Positions 29,952 to 48,718 of a stretch of DNA of 64,000 nucleotides are shown in pieces; position 1 is the stretch's first letter, and the number at the start of each line of letters is the position of its first letter. The DNA is from an uncultured bacterium (GTDB lineage Bacteria > Krumholzibacteriota > Krumholzibacteriia > LZORAL124-64-63), in contig CAVSZB010000008.1 of assembly GCA_963732385.1 (NCBI GenBank), positions 320,001-384,000 on the forward strand, written 5' to 3'. The notes beneath the pieces are model-generated. The model saw only the letters and a program-made list of their open reading frames with translations. It was not told the origin of the DNA and searched no databases. Both the position numbers and the translations under genes were made by a program.

Positions 29952-30371
29952 ATGGCCGAAGTCGCGAATCTGCCGGCCTGGACAGACGACTGCAGGGTGT
30001 CGGTCCAGGAGATCGACGCCCAGCACCAGTCCCTGTTCGGCCTCGTGGCGAACCTCGCCCGAGCGGTCGGCGAGGGCAAGAGTGGCCGGATTCTGCTGCC
30101 GACCTTCGACCTGCTTGCTGCCTACAGCGTCGAGCACTTCCAGACCGAAGAGCAATACATGGAGCAGTTCTCCTATCCCGAATTCGCCGCGCACCGGGCG
30201 GAGCACGAGCGCTTCGCGCGCAAGGTCGGCTACTTCCGGCGCGGACTGGCCATCGGCAAGTCGTGCGTGGCCAACGAGGTGCTCGATTTCCTGGCCCACT
30301 GGCTGGTCCATCACATCCAGGACGTCGATCGACGCTACGTCGACTGCTTCAGGGCGCACGGTTTGAATTGA
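29952..30371 (+). CDS. Bacteriohemerythrin
   Basis: IDAQH, HFQTEE, HRAEH, WLVHHIQDVD di-iron ligands; GAGG RBS. Confidence 0.93.
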   Translation: MAEVANLPAWTDDCRVSVQEIDAQHQSLFGLVANLARAVGEGKSGRILLPTFDLLAAYSVEHFQTEEQYMEQFSYPEFAAHRAEHERFARKVGYFRRGLAIGKSCVANEVLDFLAHWLVHHIQDVDRRYVDCFRAHGLN

Positions 30372-30484
30372 GCCGGCCGGGCCGCACCGGTTGACGGAAC
30401 CCCCTTCCGCGATTAATCTTGCGCCCCTGTGCCCGCCCGCGCCGCCCGCGCGTTGCCGGGCCGTCTTCCTCCGCAACGAGGTTC

Positions 30485-33172
30485 ATGCCCGTGGAAGCCA
30501 AGCGGATCCGCGCCCGGTTCCTGGAGTACTTCGCCGCGCGGGGGCACACGGTCGTGTCCTCGTCGTCGCTCGTGCCGCAGAACGACCCCACGCTGCTGTT
30601 CACCAACGCCGGCATGAACCAGTTCAAGGCGGTCTTTCTCGGCCTCGAAAAGCGCGGTTACGTGCGCGCGGCCTCCGTGCAGAAATGCATGCGCGTCAGC
30701 GGCAAGCACAACGACCTCGAGGAGGTCGGCCGCGACGGTCGGCACCACACCTTCTTCGAGATGCTCGGCAACTGGTCGTTCGGCGACTACTACAAGCGCG
30801 ACGCGATCCTCTGGGGCTGGGAATTCCTGACCCGGGAGATGGGGCTGACGGCCGACCGCCTCTGGGTCACCGTCTACAAGGACGACGACGACTCGCACGG
30901 CGTCTGGACGCGCGAAGTGGGGGTGCCGGCCGCCCGCGTGGTGCGGCTCGGCGATCTCGCCAACGGAGACGAGGAGAACTTCTGGGCCATGGGCGACACC
31001 GGCCCCTGCGGGCCGTGCACGGAGATCCACTACGACCAGGGCGAGGCGATGGCCTGCAAACACCCGCGGGGCTGCAAGCTCGGCGTTTGCAACTGCGACC
31101 GCTGGCTCGAGCTCTGGAACCTGGTCTTCATCCAGTTCGATCGCGCTCCCGACGGCACGCTCGCGCCGCTGCCGATGCAGAGCGTGGACACCGGCATGGG
31201 TTTCGAGCGTCTCGTGGCGGTGCTGCAGAAGAAGGAAGGCAACTACGAGTCCGATCTCTTCATGCCGCTCATCCGGCGGACGCAGGAGCTGTGCGGCAAA
31301 CCGTTCACGGGGGAGGCGCGCGTTTCGCTGCAGGTGATCGCCGACCACGCGCGGGCCGTCACGTTCACCATCGCCGACGGCGCGCTGCCGTCGAACGAGG
31401 GACGCGGCTACGTCGTGCGTCGCATCCTGCGCCGCGCGGCGCGGCACGGCCGCCGGCTCGAGCTGCGTGAACCGTTCCTCTGGCAGGTGGCCGAGGTCGT
31501 CATCGAGACGATGGGCGACGCCTACCCGGAGCTGCGCGAGCGCCGCGAATTCATCCTCAAGACGATCCGCCGCGAAGAGGAGCGCTTCAATCTCACCCTC
31601 GACCGCGGCCTGCAGGTCTACGCGGAGATCCGCGACCGCGCCCGCGTCGAGGGGCGCGCCGCGCTCTCGGGCGAGGAGGCGTTCCTGCTGCACGACACCT
31701 ACGGCTTCCCCGTCGACCTGACCGCGGTCGTGGCGGGGGAGGATGGCCTCGCGGTCGACCACGCCGCCTTCCGCGCCCGCATGGACCAGCAGCGCGAGGC
31801 GAGCGGGCGCGAACGGGTGTACGCCGAGGGGCTCGGGGCCTGGCAGCCGGTGCAGTCCGGCGGCGGCGCGCCGCTTTGTTCGCGTTTCGTCGGCAACGAG
31901 GCGCTCACGGTCGAAACCGGCGTGCTGGCCGTGCGCGAGGGGGGCCGCACGCCCGACGGCGAGCCGGCCACGCATCTGCTCTGCGCGCAGACCCCGTTCT
32001 ACGCGCAGTCCGGGGGGCAGGTCGGCGACGTTGGCGCGGTGAAGCTGCTGCCGTCCGGACCGGAGCTCGAGGTGCTCACGACGATTGGCGGCGAGGAGGG
32101 CCCGGCCATGGTGGTGGCGGGGCCGGCGGCCGGAATCCTGGCCGCGTTGCGCGCCGCGGTCGGCGTGCGGCTCACGGTCGACGGCGCCTCGCGCGGCCCG
32201 ACGATGCGGCACCACACCGCGACCCACCTGCTGCACGCCGCGCTGCGGCAGGTGCTGGGCGACCACGTCGAGCAGGCCGGCAGCGAGGTCGCGCCGGACA
32301 AGCTGCGCTTCGACTATCGGCACGACGCCGCGCTGTCGCGCGAGGAGATCGCGTGCGTGGAGGCGATCGTCAATGCCCAGGTGCTCGCCAACGCGCCCGT
32401 CGTGGCTCACGCCGGCGTGCCGCTCGCCCAGGCCAGGGCGCGCGGCGCGATGGCGTTGTTCGGCGAGAAGTACGGCGAGACGGTGCGCATGGTCGAGGTG
32501 CCCGGCTTCTCGCTCGAGCTGTGCGGCGGCACACACGTGTCGCGCACCGGCGACATCGGGCCGTTCCGGATCGTGGCCGAGACCAGCAGCGCCGCCGGCG
32601 TCCGCCGCATCGAGGCGGTTGCCGGCGATCGCGCGCTCGCTTTGGCGCGGCAGGAGCGGGAGCAGCTCGCCGCCGTGGCCGGCCTGCTCCGCCGCGACGG
32701 CGGCGCCGCGGCCGACCAGGTGCGCGCCCTCATCGCAGAGCGCGACGCCCTGCGCCGCGAGCTGCAGGACCTGCAGCGGCAGTCGGCCCGCGACGGCCTC
32801 GGCGACGCGCTCGCCGCTCCCACCGACGTGAACGGCCTGCGCGTGGTCGCCGCGCGCGTCGATGCCGACGGCCGCGACGCCCTGCTCGCCCTCGGCGACC
32901 ATGTCCGCGACAGGCTCGGCACGCTGGGCGTCGTCGTGCTCGGCGCGGAGTGGGAGGGCAAGGCGACCCTGCTCGTCTCGCTCACCCCCGACCTCGTCGC
33001 CGCCAAGCGTCTGCACGCCGGCGACATCGTCAAGGCGATCGCCGCCCAGGTCGGCGGCCGCGGCGGCGGCAAACCGAACACGGCGCAGGCCGGGCTGCCC
33101 GACGCGGCGAGCGTCGAGCCGGCGCTGGCGACAGCCGTGGAGGTAGTGCGGGGAAGCGACTCGGGAGCCTGA
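30485..33172 (+). CDS. alaS: Alanine--tRNA ligase
   Basis: DPTLLFTNAGMNQFK, HHTFFEMLGNWSFGDY, GPCGPC, DTGMG, HTATHLLH and ELCGGTH editing motifs, GGRGGG. Confidence 0.98.
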   Translation: MPVEAKRIRARFLEYFAARGHTVVSSSSLVPQNDPTLLFTNAGMNQFKAVFLGLEKRGYVRAASVQKCMRVSGKHNDLEEVGRDGRHHTFFEMLGNWSFGDYYKRDAILWGWEFLTREMGLTADRLWVTVYKDDDDSHGVWTREVGVPAARVVRLGDLANGDEENFWAMGDTGPCGPCTEIHYDQGEAMACKHPRGCKLGVCNCDRWLELWNLVFIQFDRAPDGTLAPLPMQSVDTGMGFERLVAVLQKKEGNYESDLFMPLIRRTQELCGKPFTGEARVSLQVIADHARAVTFTIADGALPSNEGRGYVVRRILRRAARHGRRLELREPFLWQVAEVVIETMGDAYPELRERREFILKTIRREEERFNLTLDRGLQVYAEIRDRARVEGRAALSGEEAFLLHDTYGFPVDLTAVVAGEDGLAVDHAAFRARMDQQREASGRERVYAEGLGAWQPVQSGGGAPLCSRFVGNEALTVETGVLAVREGGRTPDGEPATHLLCAQTPFYAQSGGQVGDVGAVKLLPSGPELEVLTTIGGEEGPAMVVAGPAAGILAALRAAVGVRLTVDGASRGPTMRHHTATHLLHAALRQVLGDHVEQAGSEVAPDKLRFDYRHDAALSREEIACVEAIVNAQVLANAPVVAHAGVPLAQARARGAMALFGEKYGETVRMVEVPGFSLELCGGTHVSRTGDIGPFRIVAETSSAAGVRRIEAVAGDRALALARQEREQLAAVAGLLRRDGGAAADQVRALIAERDALRRELQDLQRQSARDGLGDALAAPTDVNGLRVVAARVDADGRDALLALGDHVRDRLGTLGVVVLGAEWEGKATLLVSLTPDLVAAKRLHAGDIVKAIAAQVGGRGGGKPNTAQAGLPDAASVEPALATAVEVVRGSDSGA

Positions 33173-33191: not shown

Positions 33192-34547
33192 TCAGGCCGC
33201 CGGAACCGGCGCGGCGGCCGCGCACGGCAGCCACAGCGTGCAGACGGTGCCGCGGCCCGGCAGGTCGCGCAGTTCGAGTTCGCCGCCGAGATTGCGCGCG
33301 AGATCGCGCGCCAGCGGCAATCCGAGGCCGATCCCCCCGGTGGCGCGCGTGAATGAGCCGTCGAGCTGTTGGAACGGCTCGAAGGCCTGTGCCAGGCGCT
33401 CGGGGGCGATGCCGGGGCCGTTGTCTTCGACTTCCAGGCGCACGACGGTGGCGCCGTCGCGCCGGTCGCGCAGCGCCCGCAGCGTGATGCGGCTGCCCTC
33501 CGGACTGAACTTCGCGGCGTTGCCCACCAGCTCGTCGAGGATGCGGCGCAGGTGGCCGGGATCGCACAGCGCCGGGGGCAGGGTCGGATCGAGTCGCAGG
33601 ACGAACTCGAGCAGGTCTCGCGCCAGCCCGGGACGGCGCTCCTCGTGGTAGTCGCCGAGCAGGGGAGCCAGGTCCGTAGGCGTCGTCGTGACGGAGACCA
33701 GGTCGTCGCGCAGCTCGCGGAAGGTGAGCAGGTTCTCGATCATGCTGCGCAGCCGTCCCGCCTGCGCGATCAGTTCGGCCAGGAACTCCTGCGACTGTGC
33801 GGGCCCCAGCGTGCCGGACCGCAGCAGGTCGGCGTACGACAGGATGACGGTCAGCGGCGTCTTCAGCTCGTGGTGCAGGTTGTCGAGGAACTGCTGCTTG
33901 AGCTCGTCGAGTTCCTGCAGCCGGGCCCGCGCCTGGCGCAGCTCGCGGTTCTGCTCCAGGGTGCTGGCGTGCAGCTGCGTGTTGTCGAGCGCGACCCCGA
34001 GGTGGTGCAACGACGCCTGCAGGATGCGCAACTGGCCCGGCGAATACGGTCCGCCGGCCACGTGGCGGCCGAGCGCGAGGGCGCCGATCGGCCGGCCGCT
34101 CGAGAAGAGCAGGCCGAACAGCCCCAGCCTGGCCCCCTCGGCCAGGGCGTGGGCCGCCGGATCGAGCAGCGCTCCCAGCTCCTCGACGAAGAACGGCTCC
34201 GGGTGATCGTCGCCCGCGGCCACGATCCGCCCGACGCACAGCTCGCCCAGCGCCTCCGCCACCCGCGTGGGGATGCCGAGGCTGCGCAACAGCACCGGGC
34301 GCCCGCTCTTGCGCGAGACCACCCAGAGCGCCGCCGAGGCGGTGCCGAGGTTGCCCATGAACTTGAGCAGACCCAGTTCGGCCACGCGGTAGAGGTCGCC
34401 GGTGGCGTGGATCTCCTGGCTGAGCTCCAGCAGGGCCTGCAGGCTCAGCTCCTCGAGCGTACGCGGAGCCTTCCGGTCGCCGGCGGGGACGTCGACGCGC
34501 GGCGGCGACGCTGCCGGGTCGTGGAGCGAGGGCGATAGCGTGTTCAT
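33192..34547 (-). CDS. Cytoplasmic sensor histidine kinase with N-terminal GAF-like domain
   Basis: H-box HHELKTPL, N-box LVGNAAKFS, DNGPGI, FEPFQQ, GIGLGL; no TM segment seen. Confidence 0.92.
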   Translation of the reverse strand: MNTLSPSLHDPAASPPRVDVPAGDRKAPRTLEELSLQALLELSQEIHATGDLYRVAELGLLKFMGNLGTASAALWVVSRKSGRPVLLRSLGIPTRVAEALGELCVGRIVAAGDDHPEPFFVEELGALLDPAAHALAEGARLGLFGLLFSSGRPIGALALGRHVAGGPYSPGQLRILQASLHHLGVALDNTQLHASTLEQNRELRQARARLQELDELKQQFLDNLHHELKTPLTVILSYADLLRSGTLGPAQSQEFLAELIAQAGRLRSMIENLLTFRELRDDLVSVTTTPTDLAPLLGDYHEERRPGLARDLLEFVLRLDPTLPPALCDPGHLRRILDELVGNAAKFSPEGSRITLRALRDRRDGATVVRLEVEDNGPGIAPERLAQAFEPFQQLDGSFTRATGGIGLGLPLARDLARNLGGELELRDLPGRGTVCTLWLPCAAAAPVPAA

Positions 34548-34548
34548 G

Positions 34549-34902
34549 TCACCGTTCCGTTCCGGCCAGGGCCCCCTCGAGCGACGGCGAAATCTCCAGG
34601 AACTGGTCCAGGTTGAGCAGCTCGAGCACCTGCGTCACCCCGCTGCGGGGCGCCGCCAGGACCAGCTTGCCGCCCGCCGAGCGGAACTCCTCCGTCAGGA
34701 GGAGAAACGTGCCGAGGCCGCTCGAGGCGACGAACGTGACGCCGTCGAGATCGATCACCAGGCGCGAGCAGCCGCCCTCGATCAGCTCGGCGCAGCGCTC
34801 CCGCAACTGCTGGGCGCCAGGGGCTTCGATGCGGCCGCGCAGCCGCAGCACCGGCAGGTCGTCCCGGCCGTTGCCGAGCGTGATCTCCAACTGGTCAGAC
34901 AT
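34549..34902 (-). CDS. STAS-domain anti-sigma-factor antagonist (RsbV/SpoIIAA-like)
   Basis: LRLRGRIE, LVIDLDGVTFVASSGLG (phosphoacceptor Ser), VLELLNLDQFL. Confidence 0.92.
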   Translation of the reverse strand: MSDQLEITLGNGRDDLPVLRLRGRIEAPGAQQLRERCAELIEGGCSRLVIDLDGVTFVASSGLGTFLLLTEEFRSAGGKLVLAAPRSGVTQVLELLNLDQFLEISPSLEGALAGTER

Positions 34903-36973
34903 GAGGTGTCTCCTCCTCCGCCGGTACGGTGTCCGGCTCGAATCGCAGCAGCGTCAGGTTGCCCGACGGAGTGCCGGGCAGGTAGCTGACCTTCCGCATG
35001 GCCGCGTGGACGATGCGCAGCCCCAGACCCCGGCCCTGCAGGCGCACCCGCGGGTCGTTCAGGTCGGGGAAGCGCCAGTCGGCCGGGTCGTAGGCGCGAC
35101 CCCGGTCGGTGAGCAGGAACCAGCCGCCGGAGCGGTCCGGCGCCGGGCGCCAGGCGATCGTGATCTCGCCCTCCGCGTCGCCGCCGTGGCCGTGCTCGAC
35201 GATGTTGGCCGCGAGCTCGTACAGGCACAGTTCGGCGATCTCGCGCGGGGCCGATCCCAGTGCGCGCAGGCAGGGGCAGGCGTCGAGCCAGCCGCGGATC
35301 GCCGGCAGCGCGCCGCGTCTGACCGGCAGTCGGAGGCGATGGGCGTCGCGGAAGTCCGCCGCGATCTGCTGCCAGGCGGGATCCGCCGCGGCGGCCGGTC
35401 CGTCGCGTCGCGTGGTCGCCGGTCCGGCCGCGACCGTGGCCGGCGCGCGCCCCACGACCACCAGCGTCAGGTCGTCGCCCAGCGGCGCGCCGCCGGTCCA
35501 GGCGGCGTGGGCCCGCTGCAGCGCCGCCAGGAGCCGCTCCGGGCCGCCCGGTCCGGCCTGCGCGGCGATCGTGCCGAGCCGCGGCAGGCCGAATTCCTCG
35601 CCGCTGGCGTTATTCGCCTCGGTCAGGCCGTCGGTGTACTGCAGGAGCAGGTCGCCCGGCCCGAGCACGGTGTCGTCATCGCAAACGGTGCGCGCCAACG
35701 CGCCGTCGCGCCGCACCGCGCCGATCGGGATGCCCTTCGTGCGGAACCACTCGAGGCCGCCGTCGCGCGCCCGCCAGACCAGCAGGGGGTTGTGCCCGGC
35801 CGAGGCGAAGCGGAGAGCGCCGCTTGCCGGGTCGAGCAGGCCATAGAACAGCGTGACGAAGACACCGGGGCGCAGCGAGTCGACCAGGCGCTCCTCGAGC
35901 GCGACGATGGCCGCGGCGGGGGAGTCGGTCTCCTCGCGCAGCGAGCGCAGCAGGACCGCCAGCATGGAGGTCACGAGGCAGCCGCCCAGCCCCTTGCCGG
36001 CGACGTCGGCGATGACGATGCCGACCTGTCCGTCGGCGCGCCGGAACACGTCCCAGTAGTCGCCCCCCACCTCCGAGGCGGCGCGGTAGGCGCCGTGCAC
36101 GGCGAAGGGGGGCGCCGCGAGCGGCGCGCGGGGCATCAGCGACTCCTGGATGCTGCGCGCGAGGTCCATCTCGTGCGACAGCCGCTCCTTCTCGATCAAC
36201 TGCTCCTGCGAGGCCTTCAACTGCGTCGCCATGCCGTTGACCGCCTCGGCGAGGCGGCCGATCTCGGTGCGGTCGCGCAGGCGCAGCGGCGTGTCGAGGT
36301 CGCCCCGTCCGATGCGGGCCAGCCCCTCGCGCAGCAGCCCGAGCGGGCGCAGCAGCAGCGACATCAGGCCGAAGGCCGCCGCGCTGCCGGCGACCAGCAG
36401 CCCGGCGGCCAGCGAGACCAGGGTGCGCCGCGAGCGGGTGACCTGCCGGTCGAGGTACGCGCGCTTCAGCGCCACGACCGCGGTTCCGAGCGGCTGCCCG
36501 TCCCGCAGGGTGACCGGCACGGCCGCGATGATGCGGTGCGCGTCGCCGAGCAGGCGCTCGCCGTCGCGCAACGGCTGTCGCGACGCCACCGGCCGGAGGC
36601 CGGCGAGGCCGGTGTAGGCTTCGCCGAGCCGTCGCGCATCGACATCCGCCTGGATGCGGCCGTTGCGGTCGAGCACGACCACCGATTCGAGGTCGTCGCG
36701 GCGGGCGGTCATTTCGGTGACGAGCGGGCAGAGCGTCAGCTCCGGGAACTCCGCGAGCAGAGCGTCGGTGCCGGCCAGCGCGAGGTTGCGCGCCTCGAGC
36801 AGCAGCCGCGCCTCCACCTCGGCGGTCAGGCTCTCCCGGGCGTTGTGCTCGGCAACCCCGCCGACGGTCAGGATCGTGACCACGACCAGGCCGACGGCGG
36901 CCAGGCCGATCACCAGGCGCATGCTCACCGCGCGCGCCGCCCGGTCCCCGCCCCGTCCGTTGCCACTGTTCAT
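34895..36973 (-). CDS. Membrane sensor: 2 TM + HAMP + SpoIIE/PP2C phosphatase + RsbW-like HATPase
   Basis: HAMP (LRPL...EIGRLAEAVNGM), PP2C motifs EVGGDYWD, IADVAGKG, YTDGLTEA, DDLTL; kinase motifs ELAANIVEHG, DRGRAYDP, GRGLGL. Alternative start 36991. Confidence 0.92.
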   Translation of the reverse strand: MNSGNGRGGDRAARAVSMRLVIGLAAVGLVVVTILTVGGVAEHNARESLTAEVEARLLLEARNLALAGTDALLAEFPELTLCPLVTEMTARRDDLESVVVLDRNGRIQADVDARRLGEAYTGLAGLRPVASRQPLRDGERLLGDAHRIIAAVPVTLRDGQPLGTAVVALKRAYLDRQVTRSRRTLVSLAAGLLVAGSAAAFGLMSLLLRPLGLLREGLARIGRGDLDTPLRLRDRTEIGRLAEAVNGMATQLKASQEQLIEKERLSHEMDLARSIQESLMPRAPLAAPPFAVHGAYRAASEVGGDYWDVFRRADGQVGIVIADVAGKGLGGCLVTSMLAVLLRSLREETDSPAAAIVALEERLVDSLRPGVFVTLFYGLLDPASGALRFASAGHNPLLVWRARDGGLEWFRTKGIPIGAVRRDGALARTVCDDDTVLGPGDLLLQYTDGLTEANNASGEEFGLPRLGTIAAQAGPGGPERLLAALQRAHAAWTGGAPLGDDLTLVVVGRAPATVAAGPATTRRDGPAAAADPAWQQIAADFRDAHRLRLPVRRGALPAIRGWLDACPCLRALGSAPREIAELCLYELAANIVEHGHGGDAEGEITIAWRPAPDRSGGWFLLTDRGRAYDPADWRFPDLNDPRVRLQGRGLGLRIVHAAMRKVSYLPGTPSGNLTLLRFEPDTVPAEEETPHV

Positions 36974-37008
36974 GTTCCGGTCCCTACGCATGCGCCCGCC
37001 CGTTTCCA

Positions 37009-38958
37009 CTAGGAGCCGCCGAGGACCCGGCGAATCCCGGCCTGTTGTTCGTGTGCCCGTTCCAGGTAGCCCTTCGCGCGGCGGTCGTCCGGATCGATGT
37101 GCAGTACCCGCTGCCAGTGCGTCGCCGCCTCGTCGAGCCGGCCGGCGGCGAAAGCCTCCATGCCGAGCGTGAGATATTCGCGCTTGAGCGCCTCGGCCGC
37201 GCGCGCGTACGCGGGGTCGGCGCTCCAGACAAGTTCCCAGTAGGCCACGGCCTCGCGGGGTCGCCCGGCGTCGAGCGCCGCCAGGCCGCGCCGGTAGAGG
37301 TCGTCGACTTCGCGGCGGCGCTGCGCGCTGAGCGGGGCCGGCGCCGGGGGCGCTGCCGGCCGGGGCGCCGGGGCGACCGTCGCCGGGGCCGTCCTGTCGG
37401 CCGCCGGTCGCGGCGTCTCGGCGGCGCGCCGCGTTGCGGCGAGCGTCGCGGCGGTGCGGGCGGCGATCGCCGTTTCCGTGCGTCGCAGCATGTCCGTGGC
37501 CTCGCGGTCGTCGGGGGCGGCCGCGACGACCCGCGCGAACCGTTCGCGCGCCGCCAGCAGGCTGTCGGCGGCAAAGGCGTCGAGCGCGCGCGAGAACAGT
37601 CCGCGCAGTTCGAGCGAGCGGGCGGCCAGGCGATCCCCCTCGGCGCGACAGCGGGCCAGCTCGCCGGCCAGCCTGGCGTCGCCGGGGACCAGCTCGGCCG
37701 CGCGGCCAAGCGCCAGGGCGGCGGCGGCGTGGTCGCCCGTCTTCATCAGGCGGTCGGCCTGGGCGCGCAGCGCCGCGACTTCGGTGGAAGCGAGGCGCGG
37801 ATCGTCCGGCTCGAGCACGCGCAGCAGGCCGAGGATCTCCCGCGCCTCGTCGGGACGGCCGGCGGCGAGCGCCCCTTGCGCCCGGGCGGCGAGCGAATCG
37901 GCGCGCGCCCGGCGCCGGGCGTCGAACGCGGCGGCCAGCCGCGCCTGGAGCGCCGCCTCCCGCGCTTCCAGGGTCGCCTCGCGGCTCTCGGCCACGGTCG
38001 GCCCGAACATCAGCGAGATCCCGATCCGGTGGATCGGCTCGAGCGGCGTGTCGGCGAAGACGTAGTCGACGGTCAGGCCGTTCCACCGGACGGCGGCGCC
38101 GGCGGTGAGAGATCCGTGGTCCAGACCGGCCCGCAGGGCCAGCAGGGCGAGAGGCTGCAGTTCGCAGCCGGCCTGCAGGCGCGCGTCCATGTCGCGTGTC
38201 TGTTCGACGTCGGCCGTCAGCACCAGGCGCCCCTCGCTGCCGAGCCTGCGGGCGAGCGCGGCGCCGAGCCGCGCCCCGAACGGGTCGCGCACGGTCTCCT
38301 GGTCGAGGCGGAGCGCCGGCTCGGCGAGGTTGCGCAGCGCCAGGCCGACGGTCAGGTCGGTCGCCGGTCCTACTCCGCGCCAGGCGGGGACCGGGCGGAT
38401 CAGCAGCCCGACATCGAGGCCGATGCCGGCGTCGCTGTAGCCGGCCAGACTCTGCCGGCGCAACTTGACGGCGGCGCCCAAGCCGGTGGCCGCGCCGAGG
38501 CGGCGCCCGTACGCCAGCCCCAGTTCGGTTTCGGAGTCCTCGATCTCGTCGCCGAGCCGCACGTTGCGTTCGTCGCGCGGGTCGATGCCGCCGGCGCCGA
38601 AGCGGCGGAAGGTGACGGCGGCGGCGCCCCAGCGCCAGCTCGGGACCACCAGGCCGGCGAACTGCTCGCCGAAGCCGAGGCCGACCAGGTCGGTGTGCGA
38701 CGCCTGCAGTTCCCTCCGTGCGACCCAGCCGAGGCCGCCGGGGTTCCAGAGCGACCCGCTGGCGTCGTCGGCCAGGGCGGCATAGGCGCTGCCGAGTGCG
38801 AGGGCGCGGTTGCCGGCGCCGGTGGCGAAGAGCGAGCGCCCGCCGGCGTCGTCACCGGCGCGCGCGCTGCCGACCGGAGCGCCGAAGATCGCCGCGGTCA
38901 CGAGCGCGGGCAGCAGGCAGGCCGGCAGCCGCGCCGATGTCGCCCTCCGCCGGCTCAT
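37009..38958 (-). CDS. PorV/PorQ-like outer-membrane beta-barrel fused to a C-terminal TPR region
   Basis: Signal peptide, GAGNRALALGSAYAALADDASGSLWNPGGL family signature, amphipathic beta strands ending HRIGISLMFG, then TPR-like helices. ATGA overlap with the upstream gene. Confidence 0.82.
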   Translation of the reverse strand: MSRRRATSARLPACLLPALVTAAIFGAPVGSARAGDDAGGRSLFATGAGNRALALGSAYAALADDASGSLWNPGGLGWVARRELQASHTDLVGLGFGEQFAGLVVPSWRWGAAAVTFRRFGAGGIDPRDERNVRLGDEIEDSETELGLAYGRRLGAATGLGAAVKLRRQSLAGYSDAGIGLDVGLLIRPVPAWRGVGPATDLTVGLALRNLAEPALRLDQETVRDPFGARLGAALARRLGSEGRLVLTADVEQTRDMDARLQAGCELQPLALLALRAGLDHGSLTAGAAVRWNGLTVDYVFADTPLEPIHRIGISLMFGPTVAESREATLEAREAALQARLAAAFDARRRARADSLAARAQGALAAGRPDEAREILGLLRVLEPDDPRLASTEVAALRAQADRLMKTGDHAAAALALGRAAELVPGDARLAGELARCRAEGDRLAARSLELRGLFSRALDAFAADSLLAARERFARVVAAAPDDREATDMLRRTETAIAARTAATLAATRRAAETPRPAADRTAPATVAPAPRPAAPPAPAPLSAQRRREVDDLYRRGLAALDAGRPREAVAYWELVWSADPAYARAAEALKREYLTLGMEAFAAGRLDEAATHWQRVLHIDPDDRRAKGYLERAHEQQAGIRRVLGGS

Positions 38959-41900
38959 CGTAATACCGCCACCTTCCGCAGCAGCCGCTCCTCGCGGCCG
39001 TCGCCGAACTTCACGCGCAGTTCCGCCACGTAGACGCCGCTCTGCACCGCCACGCCCCGGCCGTTGCGCCCGTCCCAGCAGTCGTCCTGGTGCAGGCCGG
39101 CGGCGCGGTCGGCGTCGGCCACCGGCGTCGCCACCGGCTCGCCGCGCGGCGTGAAGATGCGCAGGGTGACCCGGGCGGCCGACGGCAGGTCGTACACGAA
39201 GGTCGTCGCCTCGCGGCCGGCGGCGAACGGGTTGGGGAAGTTGGCGTAACTGTCGGCCAGACCGGCCGCGGCGAAGGTGCCGGCTTCGGTCCAGAACGGG
39301 AACTGCCGGCCCGCCGGCGCCTCCACGCGCACGGCGAGCAGCGCGCCGTCGGGCTGCAGCACCGCCACGTCGTCGCGATCGAGGCCGAGCCGGAGGCCGC
39401 CGGCCGGGGGCGGTGCGCGGAAGCGGGCGCGCAGCTCCAGCCCCAGCGTCGCGCCCGGCGCGATCTCGATCGGCTGCGGCGGGACCAGCAGGGCCAGCGC
39501 CGCGTCGGCCGCGACGGTGTCGGCGACGGCCCAGACTTCGTCGCCGGCCAGCGCGATCACCGCGCGCAGCGCCGCTCCGGCCGGCAGCGCCGCGAGATCG
39601 GGCGCGGCCGCGCGCAGCGCCACCGCTGTCACCACGATGCTGCCCGATCCGGCGGTGGCGGGGTTCGTCAGCGTCAGCCGGCCGACCGCGCACTCGGCGC
39701 CGTCGGTCGGCAGGACCGGAGGCAGCGCCGGGGCGAAGTCCGCCACGAGCAGGTCGGCGGGCGGCTGCAATACCGTCAGCCCGGACGAGAGCGGCAGTTC
39801 CGCTCCCGGCGCGGCTGCCAGCGCGACCGCGGCGCCGAGGTTGGCGTCGCGGGCGTCGAGCCCCTCCGCTTCGACCAGCAGTTCGAACGCTCCGGCCGGC
39901 GCCCCCGCTGCGAAGTCGACCACGACGTCGAGTCCCACCAGTTCGCCGGCGAAAAGCCGCAGTCCGCCCAGCGGCACGCTGACGGCGTCGCCCCGCGGGC
40001 TCTCCTGCGTCGCCAGCACAGCCCCATCGCGTCGCACGACGACCCGGTCCAGGTAGCGGGCGGGGTCGAGGCGCGCGCGGGTCTGATCGCGGCAGACCAG
40101 GCGCACGGTGTCGCAGACGATGGCTGCGGTGCCGATCGCGCCCGGGTGGCGCAGGGCGAGCGCCAGCGCCGTCACGCCGCGGGCCCCGACGGTCAGAGCG
40201 GACGGCAGGCGGGGCGAGCCGGCGGCCTGCAGTTGCGTGGCCGCCGCCTCCACCCGCAGGATCGGGCCGGCGAGCGGGTCGGTGGCGAAGGTCACCGCAA
40301 CGGCGGCGCCGGTCCCCTCGTCGCGCGCCCGGCAGCGGGCGGGGGAGGCGAGACGCAGGCTCAGCGCGCCGACCGGCGCGGCGGCGGCCAGGTCGGCCGT
40401 CACGATCAGGTCGACCGGCGCCTCGGCCGGCACCGCCAGGTTGGGCACGATGACGAGCGACAGCACGGTGTCGGCGCCCGGCGCGACCGGCCGGACGGCG
40501 AGCGCGATCCCGTCGCGGCGCAGGGCGAGAGCGCTCAGCCAGGCGCCCGGATCGGGCACCGCGGCGCCCAGCGTGTCGCAGAGGGTGAAGGCGAGCGTGT
40601 CGACGAGGACGTCGCTCGTAAGATCGGGCAGGCCCGGGTTCGCCAGCCGCAGCGCCAGCAGCGCCACGCCGGTCTGCCCGGGGCCGGCCAGCGGCTCGGG
40701 CAGCGGCAGCGCGGCGAGTTCCAGGCCGCTCGCGTCGGCGGTCACCTCGCCCAGGCCCGACAGGACCGGGTAGCTTCCCTCCGCCAGCACGATCGCCACG
40801 GCGGCGCCAGCGACGTCGTCGAAGGCGGTCAGGCCGCCGGTGTCGGTCAGCGCGAGGCGGAACCGGGGCACGGTGGTCGTGGCGGCGATGTCGAGCCGGA
40901 TGCCGAGCGTGACCGGCTCGTTCACGGTGATCAGCACCGGACTCGTCAACGCCAGATCCAGCGCGGCGCCGGAGTCGGCGAGCCGGGTCAGGTCGATGTA
41001 GGTATGCGTCCCCTCGTTCACGACCACTCGCGACAGCAGTGCGGCCGGCACGATGCCGGCGCCCGATTCGTCTTCGAGCCGCAGGCGCAGGCGGTCGAGT
41101 CGGACCGCCGCGCCATCGACCATGCCCGGGTTGATGAGCGTCAGGCTGAGCGGCACGACGCCGGTCTGCCCGCGGCTCACCTTGAACGGGCGGTTGGGCA
41201 CCGGGAAGAGCTCCAGGTCGTCGGCCGGCTGGAACACGCGGTGCGGGTTGGTCGTGGCGGTGAGGGAGCGGCGCGGCAGGCCGTCGCCGGCGCTCGTGCC
41301 CTGGGCCAGGGCCGAGAGGGTCAGCGTCCCGACCGCCGTGGCCCGACAGGTCCAGGCCAGCGTGTCGACGTCGCCCGACGCGAGATCGCGCGGGACGGGC
41401 AGGCTCCCCTCGAGCGTGAGCTGGCCGGCGCCGTCGATCGCCAGGCCGGTGACCGCGATGCCGGTCACGGTCTCGGCGCCGACGTTGCGCACGATCAGGC
41501 GCGCGGCGACGAGCTGGCCAAGCGTGCTGGCCGGAGCGCCTACCTCGAGCGTGGCGAGCAGGGGGGCCGTGCTGAGCAGGAGCTGCGACGGCGCCGCGAC
41601 CGCGGCGTCACGGGGTCCGTCGTTGCCCGAGCTGACGGTCACGCCGTCGCGCGGCACCGCCAGCCGCACCGTGGCGGAATCGGTCGGCGCGGACGACGCG
41701 GTCACGACCGCGAACAGCCGCAGGCCGCCGGCGGGAATCGGCTCGGTGAGCAGCGGGCTGCGCCAGGCGCCGTCGAGGAAGATCAGCGGCGTCAGTTCGA
41801 CGTCGTCGCCGCCGAAGCGTCCGTCGCCGCCATCGCGCAGGAGCCGGACCCCGGCCAGGTCGGTCGGCGTTGCGGTGCCGCGATTCTCGAGCGTCAGGCC

Positions 41901-44900
41901 CAGCAGTCCGTCGGGTGCATAGCCGTTGGCCGGCACGGTCAGGTCGAGCGCGACGAACGGCCCGTCGTCCGGTCCGAGCGTCAGCGCCGGCGCGGGCCCG
42001 GTCGCCAGCTGCGCCGCCACCATGCCGTCGACGACGGCCCGGCCTCCGATGTCGAGCGGCCAGGCGGCCGCCACCTCCACCGCCGGCGTCACTGCGACCG
42101 CGTCCGGACCGGTCACCACGATCCCGAGGGCGTCGCCGTCGGCGGCCGTCAGGCTGATGTCCGCGGTCACGAACAGGGTGACGCTTTCCCCCGCCGGAAC
42201 GTCCACCTCCAGGTCGGCGAACGACGCCGAGCCGTCGCTGAACCAGGTCTCTCCGGCCGGCGGGTCGGTGGCGGGATCGTCGAGCGCGCCGTCCCGGTCG
42301 CCGTCGAAGCGCAGCTGCAGGCGGGGGAGGGAGGCGTCGAACTGCGCGGCGGTGCCGCCGTTGGGGCCGGCGCTGGCGTTGGCCAGGGCCAGGCGGGTCA
42401 GTCGGTGCGTCACCGTGTCGGGGTTGACCACCGCGAACCGCAGCAGAGGCGCGTCCGCCGCGCCGGGCGGGACCGTCGTGTCTGCGAGCGGTTCCGCGAC
42501 CAGCAGGATGCGGTCGGTGCGCGTGAGGACGAGCGCGTCGGTGGCCGCCACGTTCCGGTCGAGCGGACCGTCGTTCGCGCTCTCCATGCCGATCCCCGAT
42601 TCGGGCGGGCCGGGGATCGCGAAGCGGACGGTGCGTCCCTCCGTGGCGTCCGGCGCGACATCGGCCGTCACGAACAGGCGCGTTCCGCCCGGCGGCACGT
42701 CGAGCGCCAGTGCGGTCAGCTCCCAGCGCTCTCCGGTGAAGGCGAACACGCCGAGCCGGGTGTCGGTCGCCGCAAGGAACCGGCCGTCGCCGTCATCGAC
42801 CCAGGCCTCGACGCGGCTCAGGTCGGTCGGCAGGGCGCTGCCGAGGTTCACCACGTCGAGGCGCCGCAGCCGGTCCGGCGCGTAGCCGTTGGCCGGGAGG
42901 GTGACGTCGAGCACCGGCGCGCGCGTCGCGCCCAGCGGCAGTGTCGCCGCGGTCGGCGGGTGGATGGCGATCTGCGCGGCGACGCAGCCATCGACGACCA
43001 GCGGCGCGGCGGTGAGCGGCCAGGCGCCGCTGGTGGCGATCGTCGGTGTGAACTGCAGGTCGGCGGACGCCGCCAGGCCGGCGGCGAGCCGGTCGCCGTC
43101 GCGCGTGGCCAGCGCCACCGTGCCGGCGATCACCAGGCGCAGCGTGTCGCCCGGCGCCAGCGCGAGCGCCAGATCTGCGAACCGGGCGCGACCGGCGCTG
43201 AACGACGCGCTGACCGGCAGGCCGGTGGCGCGTGCGAGGACCGGCGTCAGGATGCCGTCCGTCTCCACGGCGAGCCGCAACTCCCGCCACGCGCCGTCGA
43301 GCTCAGTCGTGGTGCCCGGCCCCTCGCCGAGGTTGACCACGGCGAGCGCGGTCAGTGTCTCGGGCAGCGCCGCGGCGTTGCGCAGCGTCAGGGTGAGCAG
43401 GTCGGCGACGGCCTCGTCCGCGTGCGCGATCCGCCCCGCGCGCGCCGCCGCGGTCGCCTGCACCGCGCCGGCGGCCACGGTGACGGCCGCCGCCGCGCTC
43501 TCCTGGCCCGGCGACGGATCCGGCTCGGTCACCGCGGTCACGCCGGCGGCGCTGGCAAGGGTCAGGCCGGCCGTGCCGGCGGCGACCCGCGTCGTCAGCG
43601 TGAGCGAATCGGTTGCGCCCGGCGCCAGCACCGGCAGGTTCCAGATGCCGGTCAGCGGCTGCCAGGCGCCCGCGCTCGCGAGCGCGTCGACCGGCGTCAG
43701 CCCGGCCGCCAGCGTGTCGGTGACGGTCACCGCGTGCGCCGTGTCGGGGCCGGCGTTGTGCAGCCGCACGACGAAGGGGCAGAGACCGCCGGCCAGCGGG
43801 ACCGGCTCCACCGCGCGCTGGCTCAGGCGCAGGTCCGCCCCAGGCACGCGCACCCGCACGCTGTCGGCGTTGTCGCCGGGTCGGGGGTCGGAAAGGGTGT
43901 TGACGGTGGCCGCCGTCGGCCAGACGGTCGCGTCCGCCGCGTCCGGGGCGACAGTCGTCGTGAACAACAGCGTGTCGGCGGTCCCGGGCGCCAGCCACGC
44001 CAGCGACCAGCTCTGCGTCGCCGCGGACCAGGTGCCGGCCGTGGCCGTGGCGGCTCCGGGCACGAGCGCGTCGGGGATCCCCAGCGCGACGGTGATCGAT
44101 CGCGCCGTGTCCGGTCCCGCGTTCGTGAGCACGGATCTCAGGGTCACCGCTGCGCCCGGGAGGGCCGTGGTGGGCGTGGCGGTCAGCGCGACCGCCAGGT
44201 CGGCGTTGGCGACGGCAAGCGTGGCGGTCGCCGCGTCATTGCCGGGGGCGGGGTCGGCCTCGACCGCGGCGACGATGTCGGCGCGCTGGAGCAGGACTTC
44301 GCCGACCGTCCCGGCAGCGACCGTCAGACGCAGCCTCAGCGTTTCGGCGGCCGCCGGCGCGAGCGTCGTCAGGGACCAGACGGCGGCGGCGGGGAGGTAG
44401 ACGCCCGCGCCGTCCGCGAATTCCAGCAGCGACAGACCGACCAGGGGAGCTACGGCGATCGTGACGGCGTGCGCGGAGTCGGGCCCGGCGTTGGCGAGGT
44501 GGAGCGCCAGCACGACCGTGTCGCCCTCGGCGGCCTGCGGCCGGTCGAAGGCGGCCGCGAGGGCGAGGTCCGCGGCGGCGCCGACCACCAGGTGCCGCGT
44601 GGCGCTGTTGTCGGAGAGGTCGGTGTCTGTCTGGTCGAGGGCCACGATCGCGGCGGTGGCGGTCAGCGTGTCGTGACCGGTGGCGATCCACGCGCCCCGG
44701 CGCAGCAGGGCGGTCGCGCCGGCCGGCAGCGCCCCGACCGTCCAGATCCCGGAGTCGTCGTCGAAAGCACCGACGGTCGGGGCCGCGGTCCCGACGGTCA
44801 GGCCGGCCGGCAGGGCGAACGCGATCGCCAATCCGCCGGCGTCGCTGGGGCCGTCGTTGCGCGCCGTGACGGTGAAGGTGACGCTGTCCCCGTAGACGGC

Positions 44901-46988
44901 GGCGGGCGGCGACACTTCGAGGCCGAGCGCCAGGTCGGCGCCGGTGACGATCAGGGCGGCGGCGGCCCGATCGTTGCCGGGGTACGGGTCGGGCAGGTCG
45001 CGCGCCATGATGGCGGCGCGGTTGATGAGCGTCGTGCCGGCCGTGCCGGCCAGGACGGTTGCCGTCACCTGCAGCGTCTCGGCCGCGCCCGCCGCGAGCG
45101 CGCCGACGTCCCACCGCCCCGTTTCCGGGTCCCACGGCGTGCCGCCGCTCGCCTCCCACACCGACAACTCGAGTCCGGCGGGCAGCGTGTCGGCCAGCGC
45201 GAGCCCGTCGACCGGCAGCATTCCCGTGTTCGCCACCCGCACGGTGAAGCGGACGCTGTCGCCCGGATCGGCCTGCGCCGGCTCGACCCACTTGCCGACC
45301 TCGAGATCGGTGCCGTTGACGGCCACCGTCGCCACGGCCCGGTCGTTCGTCGAGTCGGGATCGGCCGGCGAGGAGCCGACGCAAACGGCGTTGTTCACGA
45401 TCACCGAGCCGGCCGTGCCGGGGCCGACGACGGCCCGCACGTTCAGCCACGCCTCCGCGCCCGCCGGCAGCGCGCCGCACAGCCACGCGCCGGTGGCCGG
45501 CGTGTAGCCGCCCTGGCTCGCGGTCGCCGTCACGAAGGAGAGGCCGGCCGGCAGCAGGTCCGCGATTTCGCAGTCGTCCGCGGTGGAAGGGCCGCCGTTG
45601 AGCACCCGCACCGTGAACGTCACCGTGTCCGCTTCGGACGGCGAGGGGCTGTCCACCGTCTTGGACACGCTCAGATCGGCCCCCGCCACGGCCACGTCGG
45701 CGGCGGCGGTGTCGTTGGCCGCGTTGCCGTCGGGCTGCTCGAGCGCCAGCAGACGGGCCACGTTGTGCAGCGTGTCGCCGGCCGCCGCCACGAGCGGCGT
45801 GACCGCGAGGTTCAGCAGCGCCGAGCCCCAACTCGCCAGGCTGCCCACGTTCCACTGCCCGGAGAGCGGATCGAAGCTCCCCTGGGACGCCACCACGCCC
45901 GTCAGTTCCAGGCCGGGCGGAAGCAGGTCGCTCACGATGACGCCGGTTGCGGGCGCGGTGCCGAGGTTTTCCGCCTGCACCATGTAGGTCAGCCCGACCC
46001 CGGCCACCGCCTGAGTGACGCTGGCTGTCTTGCGGACGGCGATATCGACGCCGGTGTCGGGGGCGAGGGCGACGTAGTAGTAGTAGTCGAACGTATGGTT
46101 GACCTCGTCGCGGGGGCCCACCGTGAAGCCGTCCGGAAGCAACGCCACGATGCCCCCGGCGACCGGAGCGCCCGGCGGGACCGGAATAGAGAGCGGATCA
46201 TTCGTCAGGCTGGCCCAGCGCTGCAGCGGCGCCCAGCCGCTCCAGCCCTTCACCATGACCCACACCGGCGGGCACGGGAGGCCCCCGATCGTCTGCGAGG
46301 CGCCGCCGTTGCCCCAGTAGCCGCCCTGGGCCAGGTTGGGCGAGGCGGCGTTCCAGGCGATCCAGTGATAGGTTTCGCCGGCGGCGTTGACGTCCTCGTC
46401 GCTGCCGACCTGGAAGCCGTTGGCAAGCAGGTTCTCGATCCGGTCGCCTGCGGTCCCTGAGTCGTTGAAGGGGAGGCTGGCGTTGCCGGTCAGGTAGGCC
46501 ATCCGCTGCCAGGCGCGATGCGCCGCCGCCGGCAGGATCACCACGTAGCCGGGCGTGAAGCCGAGGCCGGTGATCTCCCGGTTGTCGTGCCCGTCGCCGG
46601 AGTAGGAGCCTGCGGCCACGTTGCCCGGCTCCGCCTGCACGGCGAGCCACTCGTACCGCACCCCGGCGGCGTTGACGTCGGGGGCATTGCCGACGTCGAA
46701 GCCGTCCTCCGCGAAGCTCCGGATCAGATTGGCCTGAAGGGCGACCGCGTCGCCCAGATTCTTCGCGGTGTTGACCTGCATCGTGGCGGTCCGGGCGACC
46801 GTGGGGTAGAGCGGTTCGTGCGAGCGGACCAGCACGAAGGACGGCTGGAACCCGACGCCCGACACGGTGAGGCTGCCCCCGCCGTTGCCCACGTACGACC
46901 CGGTGGCCGTCTGGGCAGGCGCGAGCGCCGCCGACAGCAACAGCAGACAGGCGAAGCCCGCCGCCGCGCACCGCCTCCAGGGCGTCAT
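38955..46988 (-). CDS. Giant exported surface protein: 3 N-terminal repeats, 7 DUF11 repeats, further Ig-like modules, C-terminal FlgD-Ig/T9SS-like domain
   Basis: Signal peptide MTPWRRCAAAGFACLLLLSAALAPA; seven DL.....V.N.GP...W..G.L...ND.A units; C-terminus NFPNPF...LRIFT...WDGRNGRGVAVQSGVY. ORF is open to 47039. Confidence 0.88.
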   Translation of the reverse strand: MTPWRRCAAAGFACLLLLSAALAPAQTATGSYVGNGGGSLTVSGVGFQPSFVLVRSHEPLYPTVARTATMQVNTAKNLGDAVALQANLIRSFAEDGFDVGNAPDVNAAGVRYEWLAVQAEPGNVAAGSYSGDGHDNREITGLGFTPGYVVILPAAAHRAWQRMAYLTGNASLPFNDSGTAGDRIENLLANGFQVGSDEDVNAAGETYHWIAWNAASPNLAQGGYWGNGGASQTIGGLPCPPVWVMVKGWSGWAPLQRWASLTNDPLSIPVPPGAPVAGGIVALLPDGFTVGPRDEVNHTFDYYYYVALAPDTGVDIAVRKTASVTQAVAGVGLTYMVQAENLGTAPATGVIVSDLLPPGLELTGVVASQGSFDPLSGQWNVGSLASWGSALLNLAVTPLVAAAGDTLHNVARLLALEQPDGNAANDTAAADVAVAGADLSVSKTVDSPSPSEADTVTFTVRVLNGGPSTADDCEIADLLPAGLSFVTATASQGGYTPATGAWLCGALPAGAEAWLNVRAVVGPGTAGSVIVNNAVCVGSSPADPDSTNDRAVATVAVNGTDLEVGKWVEPAQADPGDSVRFTVRVANTGMLPVDGLALADTLPAGLELSVWEASGGTPWDPETGRWDVGALAAGAAETLQVTATVLAGTAGTTLINRAAIMARDLPDPYPGNDRAAAALIVTGADLALGLEVSPPAAVYGDSVTFTVTARNDGPSDAGGLAIAFALPAGLTVGTAAPTVGAFDDDSGIWTVGALPAGATALLRRGAWIATGHDTLTATAAIVALDQTDTDLSDNSATRHLVVGAAADLALAAAFDRPQAAEGDTVVLALHLANAGPDSAHAVTIAVAPLVGLSLLEFADGAGVYLPAAAVWSLTTLAPAAAETLRLRLTVAAGTVGEVLLQRADIVAAVEADPAPGNDAATATLAVANADLAVALTATPTTALPGAAVTLRSVLTNAGPDTARSITVALGIPDALVPGAATATAGTWSAATQSWSLAWLAPGTADTLLFTTTVAPDAADATVWPTAATVNTLSDPRPGDNADSVRVRVPGADLRLSQRAVEPVPLAGGLCPFVVRLHNAGPDTAHAVTVTDTLAAGLTPVDALASAGAWQPLTGIWNLPVLAPGATDSLTLTTRVAAGTAGLTLASAAGVTAVTEPDPSPGQESAAAAVTVAAGAVQATAAARAGRIAHADEAVADLLTLTLRNAAALPETLTALAVVNLGEGPGTTTELDGAWRELRLAVETDGILTPVLARATGLPVSASFSAGRARFADLALALAPGDTLRLVIAGTVALATRDGDRLAAGLAASADLQFTPTIATSGAWPLTAAPLVVDGCVAAQIAIHPPTAATLPLGATRAPVLDVTLPANGYAPDRLRRLDVVNLGSALPTDLSRVEAWVDDGDGRFLAATDTRLGVFAFTGERWELTALALDVPPGGTRLFVTADVAPDATEGRTVRFAIPGPPESGIGMESANDGPLDRNVAATDALVLTRTDRILLVAEPLADTTVPPGAADAPLLRFAVVNPDTVTHRLTRLALANASAGPNGGTAAQFDASLPRLQLRFDGDRDGALDDPATDPPAGETWFSDGSASFADLEVDVPAGESVTLFVTADISLTAADGDALGIVVTGPDAVAVTPAVEVAAAWPLDIGGRAVVDGMVAAQLATGPAPALTLGPDDGPFVALDLTVPANGYAPDGLLGLTLENRGTATPTDLAGVRLLRDGGDGRFGGDDVELTPLIFLDGAWRSPLLTEPIPAGGLRLFAVVTASSAPTDSATVRLAVPRDGVTVSSGNDGPRDAAVAAPSQLLLSTAPLLATLEVGAPASTLGQLVAARLIVRNVGAETVTGIAVTGLAIDGAGQLTLEGSLPVPRDLASGDVDTLAWTCRATAVGTLTLSALAQGTSAGDGLPRRSLTATTNPHRVFQPADDLELFPVPNRPFKVSRGQTGVVPLSLTLINPGMVDGAAVRLDRLRLRLEDESGAGIVPAALLSRVVVNEGTHTYIDLTRLADSGAALDLALTSPVLITVNEPVTLGIRLDIAATTTVPRFRLALTDTGGLTAFDDVAGAAVAIVLAEGSYPVLSGLGEVTADASGLELAALPLPEPLAGPGQTGVALLALRLANPGLPDLTSDVLVDTLAFTLCDTLGAAVPDPGAWLSALALRRDGIALAVRPVAPGADTVLSLVIVPNLAVPAEAPVDLIVTADLAAAAPVGALSLRLASPARCRARDEGTGAAVAVTFATDPLAGPILRVEAAATQLQAAGSPRLPSALTVGARGVTALALALRHPGAIGTAAIVCDTVRLVCRDQTRARLDPARYLDRVVVRRDGAVLATQESPRGDAVSVPLGGLRLFAGELVGLDVVVDFAAGAPAGAFELLVEAEGLDARDANLGAAVALAAAPGAELPLSSGLTVLQPPADLLVADFAPALPPVLPTDGAECAVGRLTLTNPATAGSGSIVVTAVALRAAAPDLAALPAGAALRAVIALAGDEVWAVADTVAADAALALLVPPQPIEIAPGATLGLELRARFRAPPPAGGLRLGLDRDDVAVLQPDGALLAVRVEAPAGRQFPFWTEAGTFAAAGLADSYANFPNPFAAGREATTFVYDLPSAARVTLRIFTPRGEPVATPVADADRAAGLHQDDCWDGRNGRGVAVQSGVYVAELRVKFGDGREERLLRKVAVLR

Positions 46989-47065
46989 GGTCGTGCGCCG
47001 ATCAAGAATGATTCCCCCGCTGGCCACTGCCTGGGCCATTGCCGTTGCCGGACCCGGGACCGGGA

Positions 47066-47106: not shown

Positions 47107-47351
47107 GACTGGAATGCGAAGCCAGGAAGCCGTTTCCGGCCCCCGCCGGCCGACAGGCCCGCGCCCTGATTCCCTCACGAGCGCGCATTTTCGGCGGCGT
47201 CCGGTCGCAAGAATCCGGCTGCATCCCGGCGCAATCGTATCTATCATGTCAGGAAGCGCCCGGGGGGGGCGGCGCGGTTCGCCGGACTCCTTAAATGCCG
47301 GGGATCGTCATCGCCGGGACTGTGTCACTGCCCAGAATCCGGAGTTTCGCC

Positions 47352-48683: not shown

Positions 48684-48718
48684 GGGGCGACCGCAACGCA
48701 TCCCGCCAGGAGGGGACC

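Follow-up and report, generated by a model that had tools for sequence, protein, structure and literature searches.

Five consecutive genes occupy the minus strand of the window, by which we mean the whole stretch of 64,000 nucleotides that was analysed. In reading order, they encode a giant T9SS-type surface protein with a signal peptide (46988-38955, 2677 aa; an alternative start at 47039 would give 2694 aa), a PorV-like barrel with a TPR arm (38958-37009, 649 aa), an inner-membrane sensor (36991, or 36973, to 34895, 698 aa), a STAS protein (34902-34549, 117 aa), and a GAF histidine kinase (34547-33192, 451 aa). The giant and barrel genes share a 4-nt ATGA overlap, the barrel and sensor genes are 17 or 35 nt apart depending on the sensor start, the sensor and STAS genes overlap by 8 nt, and 1 nt separates the STAS and kinase genes. 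The coordinates and the domain scans bore out the gene order, the four junctions, and the domain content given in the initial annotation. Response regulator, protease, and GGDEF genes were not found among the five. Close homologues came from records labelled, e.g., Krumholzibacteriota, Latescibacterota, and Eisenbacteria, and the host is thus probably a bacterium of the Krumholzibacteriota type.

The operon is bounded on one side by the convergent alaS gene, 19 nt away, and on the other by divergent OmpA-like genes. The spacing of the five genes suggests that they are co-transcribed; a promoter and terminator scan found nothing. Contigs of near relatives from a public DNA run bridge the giant-barrel and sensor-STAS-kinase junctions. 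Contigs of relatives from two RNA runs cover all 30 bins, which gives no evidence of transcription because a contig spans the convergent alaS/kinase junction and the depths resemble those of DNA. Both divergent genes (47295-50975, plus strand) encode an N-terminus that resembles a barrel and a Pro/Ala linker; OmpA_C lies at the end of the first, and the second seems to shift frame near 50300. We rejected them as members of the system, as no match was present in any locus fetched. The other neighbours are ordinary: hemerythrin (29904-30371, plus strand), alanyl-tRNA synthetase (30419-33172, plus strand), and Ada/AlkA (54163-55614, minus strand).

In the domain scan, the giant protein presented a DUF7483-like tip, seven DUF11 stretches, and a weak FlgD_ig C-terminus. 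The variable tip (46029-46910, minus strand) is made of three repeats of ~97 aa, beginning at aa 30, 127, and 222, that resemble the phage tail-fibre domain DUF7483 (Pfam E 1.3e-10). It was the sole part of the protein matched in the PHROGs search (tail fiber phrog_24898, E 1.2e-12), with a resemblance also to the virion family phrog_19943, and a DUF7483-like tip was matched in 21 of the 63 close loci, some of whose ends cut it. The DUF11 repeat stalk (43419-46001, minus strand) has seven stretches here and 0-6 in relatives, one of which (L035) carries LamG and cadherin-like domains instead. Then, a conserved core of about 1400 aa (39279-43391, minus strand), composed of tandem beta-sandwich (Ig-like) domains, is common to most members of the close and distant subfamilies. 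Modelled with AlphaFold2, the final 900 aa (pLDDT 91) are almost entirely beta; Foldseek matched the model to Ig-repeat chains with low TM-scores, and a PDB sequence search with the same 900 aa returned a weak FlgD match alone (E 0.006).

The giant protein ends in a type A-like C-terminal sorting domain (CTD; 38958-39272, minus strand) with the pattern NxPNPF ... RKVAVxR. Judged by sequence, the CTDs of the giant proteins are a barrel-linked subfamily: with a profile built from the close barrel-linked CTDs, the 37 distant linked CTDs score 71-115 bits and the 69 other matches of the genome at most 49.8. In 94 of 97 cases, the sequence retains the near-terminal Lys that has been reported for type A CTDs (PMC10994853). 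The signal peptide and the C-terminal Ig-like CTD with its near-terminal Lys let the giant protein pass as T9SS type A cargo; its CTD match is weak and is absent from the 67 TIGR04183 matches of the genome.

The genome (G000), 96% complete, contains sprA (C4:166094), porU beside porV (C7:222581-227055), and 67 CTD matches (TIGR04183). SprA, PorV, and PorU are therefore all represented, as in a canonical Bacteroidota T9SS, with porU at 416.8 bits against a cut-off of 420. The models of GldL, GldM, and GldN found no match in this 96% complete genome, the GldN search having no positive control, and GldK gave partial matches only, below the cut-off. Of the sprA/porKLMN/porU inventory proposed in the initial annotation, sprA and the near-cut-off porU were thus recovered, GldK was partial and sub-cut-off, and GldL/M/N went undetected. 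The genome presents a T9SS-like system without a detected known motor.

The second gene (37009-38958, minus strand) encodes an outer-membrane barrel of 14 strands that resembles PorV (aa 35-319) and continues into a helical arm at its C-terminus. The barrel model, obtained from a 102-row alignment, has a pLDDT of 90.8 and 14 strands, and its best structural matches are PorV 8GL6_F and 6H3I_F (Z 31.5, rmsd 3.3-3.7, 281-285 aligned), with FadL below them (Z 29.6). The PorV_fam model NF033709 gave 81.3 and 83.3 bits (E 9e-23), under its cut-off of 90, which five other barrels of the genome exceed. Since the C-terminus of an outer-membrane barrel faces the periplasm, the arm (37012-37995, minus strand) is predicted to be periplasmic. 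It includes a stalk helix of 44 residues, three TPR hairpins, a Pro/Ala linker that is disordered, and, at about 37018-37326 (minus strand), a terminal TPR pair, which is the best conserved part of the arm (0.49-0.54 vs 0.39-0.44). Arms are 319-385 aa long across relatives and, by our estimate, long enough in principle to span the periplasm. Just before the linker, at 37390-37430 (minus strand), the arm studied here is without about 31 residues, roughly one TPR, found in most relatives.

The sensor has two hydrophobic segments (aa 20-48 and 191-214) and the domains sCache_3_2, HAMP, SpoIIE (PP2C phosphatase), and HATPase_c_2 (RsbW-type Ser kinase). The PP2C motifs (GGDY, DVAGKG, TDG, and GDDLT) and the RsbW-type kinase motifs (ExxxN, DRG, and GRGLGL) are intact. 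Its periplasmic part is a DcuS/CitA-type Cache domain (36422-36841, minus strand) that has the conserved motif LLxxxPELxLxP and lacks the carboxylate-binding arginines. The nearest solved structure is DcuS (E 3.8e-10), whose pocket residues are R107, H110, and R147 (PMC12772337). The R107 position is Ile or Val in 103 of 105 Cache domains (Ile here), R147 aligns with a hydrophobic position, and the H110 position is His in 80/105 and Asp in this sensor. The sensor does not fit the carboxylate sensors of the DcuS/CitA kind, as the R107, H110, R147 pocket is not matched here; a small ligand may still be possible for the Cache domain, since the pocket His110 is kept in 80 of the 105 aligned domains. 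L79, P83, E84, L87, and P89 are retained in 97-105 of 105, and LLxxxPEL may be a dimer or core feature of the domain, the PAS core of which is poorly conserved.

The STAS protein has a conserved Ser60 in FVASSG, which is likely the phospho-acceptor. Taken together, the PP2C, RsbW-type kinase, and STAS Ser motifs are those of an RsbU/RsbW/RsbV-type partner switch. The last protein gave weak GAF-HisKA-HATPase matches; it is cytoplasmic and has no hydrophobic segment, and its H, N, G1, and G2 boxes are intact. A SigB/F/G sigma factor is not encoded in the operon, and the TIGR02980 model found no match over its cut-off in the genome and six below it.

The linkage of these genes was evaluated in loci gathered by barrel searches (80 of the places listed were fetched) and, for 20 loci, by a sensor search; 123 units combining barrel and terminal TPRs were found, 110 of them distinct. 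In 107 of the 110 distinct loci, the barrel-TPR gene has a Cache-HAMP sensor no more than 1 kb away: in 100 this sensor is downstream on the same strand, and in seven it is convergent and hence not co-transcribed. Two of the remaining three loci are contig ends, and the third has a sensor about 2 kb upstream. Upstream of the barrel, a CTD protein was found in 100/110 loci; a 1591-aa CTD protein missed by the CTD profile is also upstream in L045. No such sensor occurs within 6 kb of the six tailless PorV-family barrels of the genome, nor near three tailless barrels from other records (L044, L083, and L084).

In the reverse direction, the Cache profile was run on 208 genomes of the phylum and matched 126 times, in 101 of the genomes. 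Of these matches, 116 are in barrel-TPR loci (112 directly behind an arm match and four more that turned out to be in such loci); five are at contig edges, and five are orphans with no adjacent barrel (G083:C154, G147:C16, G051:C10, G068:C50, and G107:C277). This count is partly circular because the profile was trained on barrel-linked sensors, and it mainly indicates that unlinked look-alikes are rare. Among the 138 arm matches entered, 114 have a Cache match behind them, and the five fetched of the other 24 all have a larger sensor directly behind. In a sample of 81 Eisenbacteria genomes, the arm is followed by the sensor in 19/19 matched genomes; in 81 WOR-3 genomes, this is the case in 9/14 barrel-TPR loci, and in the other five the sensor was not found within the 1.1-1.5 kb visible. 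The gene order of the module is far above chance expectation according to the linkage counts across loci, which are counts and not statistics because kin are not independent. The expected co-occurrence of a signalling gene with the barrel/adhesin pair thus holds nearly always in this phylum and in Eisenbacteria. As read from gene content, the conserved unit is a trio: the giant CTD protein, the PorV-like barrel with its TPR arm, and the Cache-HAMP sensor.

The loci also vary in copy number and integrity. L129 (G147:C32) contains two full modules in tandem, with HD-GYP and phosphatase-kinase outputs and each with its own giant and barrel, and two genomes (G148 and G200) have three modules each. 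In a sister species of the same genus (G001, L068:5206-6935), the module is collapsed, which may be an assembly artefact: the giant gene keeps its first ~46 codons and then continues in frame into the sensor kinase domain, the barrel, Cache, and PP2C are gone, the histidine kinase has lost, without a change of frame, the part that carries its His, and the STAS gene is intact at 91%. A shorter sensor, Cache-HAMP with a weak kinase-like match and without PP2C, was found at L157:5111-6799 and L204:6108-7499, within the operon in one genome and alone in another.

The output end of the sensor is not constant. Among the 63 close loci, the sensor ends in PP2C and kinase in 28 and in HD-GYP in 29, the rest being cut by contig ends; the HD-GYP motifs HDxGK and HHExxDGxGYP are intact in 29/29. 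In the distant subfamily, PP2C occurs with a separate kinase or a kinase-STAS gene, and another form consists of a kinase-Cache-HAMP-PP2C-HTH-3xSTAS protein behind the barrel-TPR gene. This mega-sensor, seen in L207, L209-L214, and L217, is about 1400 aa long (Pfam-checked for L209) and is usually followed by two more STAS genes. On a quick IQ-TREE phylogeny of 64 barrels, with 6 of 37 distant rows as outgroup, the HD-GYP label requires four changes, at least two of them forced by well-supported branches. Cache identity is 40% to HD-GYP sensors within a subfamily and 27% to the PP2C sensors of the distant subfamily. In these comparisons, the Cache domain tracks the barrel subfamily and not the enzyme type, and the sensor output appears interchangeable, partner switch or HD-GYP, while the input is kept.

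The genes behind the sensor follow its output. STAS comes after 26 of the 27 close phosphatase-kinase sensors with enough downstream DNA, and neither STAS nor kinase was found behind HD-GYP sensors in the 17 loci where the DNA extends at least 1.5 kb downstream. Behind STAS, a histidine kinase occurs in 10/27 close phosphatase loci (eight orthologues and two hybrids) and a GAF-HD-GYP in one of the 27; in the distant subfamily, a GAF kinase follows STAS in 23/28 loci. On these counts, the kinase is an optional member of the STAS branch. A profile of the distant STAS-linked GAFs scored the close linked GAFs at 31-56 bits and gave 48-52 bits to two GAFs of the genome that have no such link; the hybrid kinases and the L057 GAF were missing from its matches. 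In L057 (2265-4268), STAS, GAF-HD-GYP, and STAS replace the histidine kinase. The initial annotation had taken the five genes as one system with the histidine kinase as local output. The former has to be corrected to a three-gene core, given the 29 close loci with an HD-GYP-ended sensor; as for the latter, the kinase is present in 10/27 close phosphatase loci, and, being optional, it is not the defining output.

Then, we evaluated whether the arm could contact the sensor. When the arm was modelled together with two Cache copies, the predicted complex reached 0.52, a value read against a calibration whose job setup differed, and the best of three controls 0.00; the runs share at least 86% of the contacts, with partner pLDDT of at least 74, and no interface came with the output. 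In that calibration, the score mark was reached by 116/157 solved pairs and 2/215 mismatched pairs, and scores of at most 0.60 at the mark comprise 18/157 solved pairs, yet both mismatched pairs. The prediction thus lends weak support to an arm-Cache contact. Covariation among arm, Cache, and CTD was based on about 98 effective sequences; mutual information picked out the terminal TPR and the Cache motif, and we discarded this result as noise, as mean-field DCA did not reproduce it and the F82 column paired with every domain.

From these features, we infer the export of the giant protein, its CTD-barrel binding, the arm-Cache contact, the nature of the signal, and the STAS target as follows. 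The giant protein is predicted to be exported through the T9SS-like pore (SprA) of the genome and to be held by its sorting tail on the private PorV-like barrel, whose TPR arm would extend through the periplasm to contact the Cache domain of the sensor. If something changed at the surface, with the barrel being loaded or the giant protein being bound and pulled, this contact would be altered, and the alteration would pass through HAMP to the enzyme. The phosphatase-kinase pair would set the phosphorylation of STAS Ser60, and STAS could then act on the adjacent GAF kinase or on a different target. Half of the close relatives would couple this input to a cyclic-dinucleotide phosphodiesterase domain (HD-GYP) instead. 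We lean slightly towards such an outside-in relay, from arm-Cache contact through HAMP to enzyme output. Its weakest step is the exact signal, where sensing of binding or tension is conjectural: a surface event would have to cross a plugged barrel, and a disordered linker precedes the terminal TPRs, which speaks against a rigid transmission of force and would suit an occupancy or distance signal better. From the reading originally proposed for the locus, the trio linkage stands, as does, weakly, the predicted interface between arm and periplasmic domain (0.52 vs 0.00 in controls), and the five-gene unit and the kinase as output do not.

More broadly, and with somewhat less confidence, a T9SS shuttle barrel could have been turned into a receptor in several FCB-related phyla, its fused arm directly gating the Cache-HAMP sensor with plug-in outputs. 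That these outputs include a partner switch, c-di-GMP breakdown, and a DNA-binding mega-sensor, all reading attachment of or load on the adhesin, is put forward just as tentatively.

A co-regulated adhesin locus without physical relay is, in our opinion, unlikely. The sensor would read an independent cue and control adhesion, and the arm would be mechanical; this mechanical role, for which we see the same low probability, could be periplasmic anchoring like PorE or a release handle for a pore without a GldLM motor. The unmatched GldL, GldM, and GldN models in the 96% complete genome (GldN without positive control) favour this explanation, as do the orphan sensors, the sensor-less barrel-TPR genes, and the precedent of PorP-PorE-PG1035, a known cargo-barrel-periplasmic complex (PMC9143113). 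It leaves unexplained a Cache family near-confined to tailed barrels through output swaps and convergent rearrangement, together with the loss of the Cache pocket arginines, and the arm-Cache prediction, weakly, beat its controls.

In Porphyromonas gingivalis, the PorA-PorY-PorX-SigP pathway ties a T9SS cargo to an inner-membrane sensor, the PorA CTD activating PorY in the periplasm (PMC12152298). By analogy, the module could be a secretion checkpoint in which Cache binds the CTD of the giant as long as it is periplasmic, until export by the barrel takes the ligand away, and the dedicated, conserved CTD subfamily would fit. We find this improbable: the conserved arm is left without a role, the tailless barrels are without sensor, and covariation involving the CTD was uninformative. 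The two systems also differ in their parts, as the CTD binds a classical histidine kinase in PorA-PorY, and here a phosphatase/kinase or HD-GYP sensor is genetically tied to a tailed barrel.

The signal could also flow from inside to outside. LapD is a degenerate c-di-GMP receptor, and under control of the Lap kind the cytoplasmic state of the sensor would change its grip on the arm, holding or releasing the adhesin. This needs the same arm-Cache contact as the outside-in relay, and the giant adhesin context fits; however, the catalytic motifs are kept in all output types, unrelated enzymes are swapped freely, as would suit a signal flowing inwards through HAMP, and a protease gene is absent among the five, which makes it very improbable. 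Finally, we give hardly any credence to a FadL-like importer, in which the barrel would take up a hydrophobic molecule gathered by the giant and the TPRs would pass it to the Cache pocket: FadL is close to PorV in fold (Z 29.6 vs 31.5), the R107 position is hydrophobic, and Treponema pallidum FadL-like barrels with periplasmic TPR bundles are proposed as hydrophobic-cargo shuttles (PMC8407342), but PorV_fam was matched at E 9e-23, a CTD protein is directly upstream in 100/110 loci, and the Cache PAS core is poorly conserved.

Returning to the outside-in relay, its parts have counterparts in known systems. The barrel shares the 14-strand PorV fold of the T9SS shuttle pairs PorV/type A CTDs, SprB-SprF, and PG1035-PorP-PorE (PMC10994853, PMC12618676, PMC9143113). 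As described for SprB-SprF (PMC12618676), a large adhesin-like CTD cargo is encoded beside its own barrel, and, as in type A CTD cargo (PMC10994853), the near-terminal Lys is conserved. Unlike in these pairs, a type A/FlgD-Ig-like CTD here appears to have a private barrel, the barrel has a fused TPR arm of 330-360 aa, the unit includes an inner-membrane sensor, and GldL/M/N were not detected. T. pallidum TP0548, TP0859, and TP0865 similarly join a 14-strand barrel to a periplasmic C-terminal TPR bundle; theirs is a short three-helix bundle with a proposed transport role, and a link to CTD cargo or a sensor is not described in the portion of that source available to us (PMC8407342).

On the sensor side, YfiBNR of Pseudomonas has a periplasmic domain-HAMP sensor regulated by protein contact, with outputs swapped in evolution (PMC3375315). 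YfiBNR receives its input from a lipoprotein together with a soluble repressor in the periplasm, whereas here it would come from a tailed barrel and a secreted protein; homology is not expected, and none of the YfiBNR architectures (outer-membrane lipoprotein, soluble periplasmic repressor, PAS-HAMP-GGDEF) was found among the five genes. In SiaABC(D) (PMC7647112) and SypE-SypA (PMC8256260), which control biofilm or aggregation, a PP2C and a kinase set STAS phosphorylation, as the motifs suggest here, and SypE carries phosphatase and kinase activities in one chain (PMC8256260). Both are without an outer-membrane input part, and the present module differs further in its candidate output, a GAF histidine kinase. 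Membership in SiaABCD was rejected: the full-length SiaA model scored 54 bits against a cut-off of 700, and GGDEF is lacking among the five genes. FecA-FecR-FecI is a further case in which a barrel, TonB-dependent, has a periplasmic extension contacting an inner-membrane regulator. It differs in the barrel, in the C-terminal TPR arm, in the Cache-HAMP enzyme in place of an anti-sigma factor, and in a protein cargo in place of a siderophore. The module therefore resembles YfiBNR, SprB-SprF, and SypE-SypA/SiaABC in parts and is a member of none.

The literature search, which covered mainly non-subscription papers and their main texts, found no description of the module, in line with the initial annotation, to which no described system of this layout was known. 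The ESM Atlas contained automatically named clusters only, from Eisenbacteria, Zixibacteria, Calditrichota, and Elusimicrobiota. We conclude that the module is real and conserved and apparently undescribed; the mechanism is plausible and unproven. The central claim is testable in vitro despite the uncultured hosts, because the arm and Cache are soluble and the outputs are standard enzymes.

The module is likely an undescribed route by which the cytoplasm of bacteria in several uncultured phyla is told of events at the cell surface. Few systems are known for sensing the engagement of an adhesin with a surface, and this is a minimal candidate of three proteins, in which the outer-membrane anchor itself bears the arm that would reach the sensor. 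PorV-family barrels would thereby gain a role beyond cargo shuttling, and the module is relevant to the use, outside Bacteroidota, of T9SS-like systems in which a motor is not detectable.
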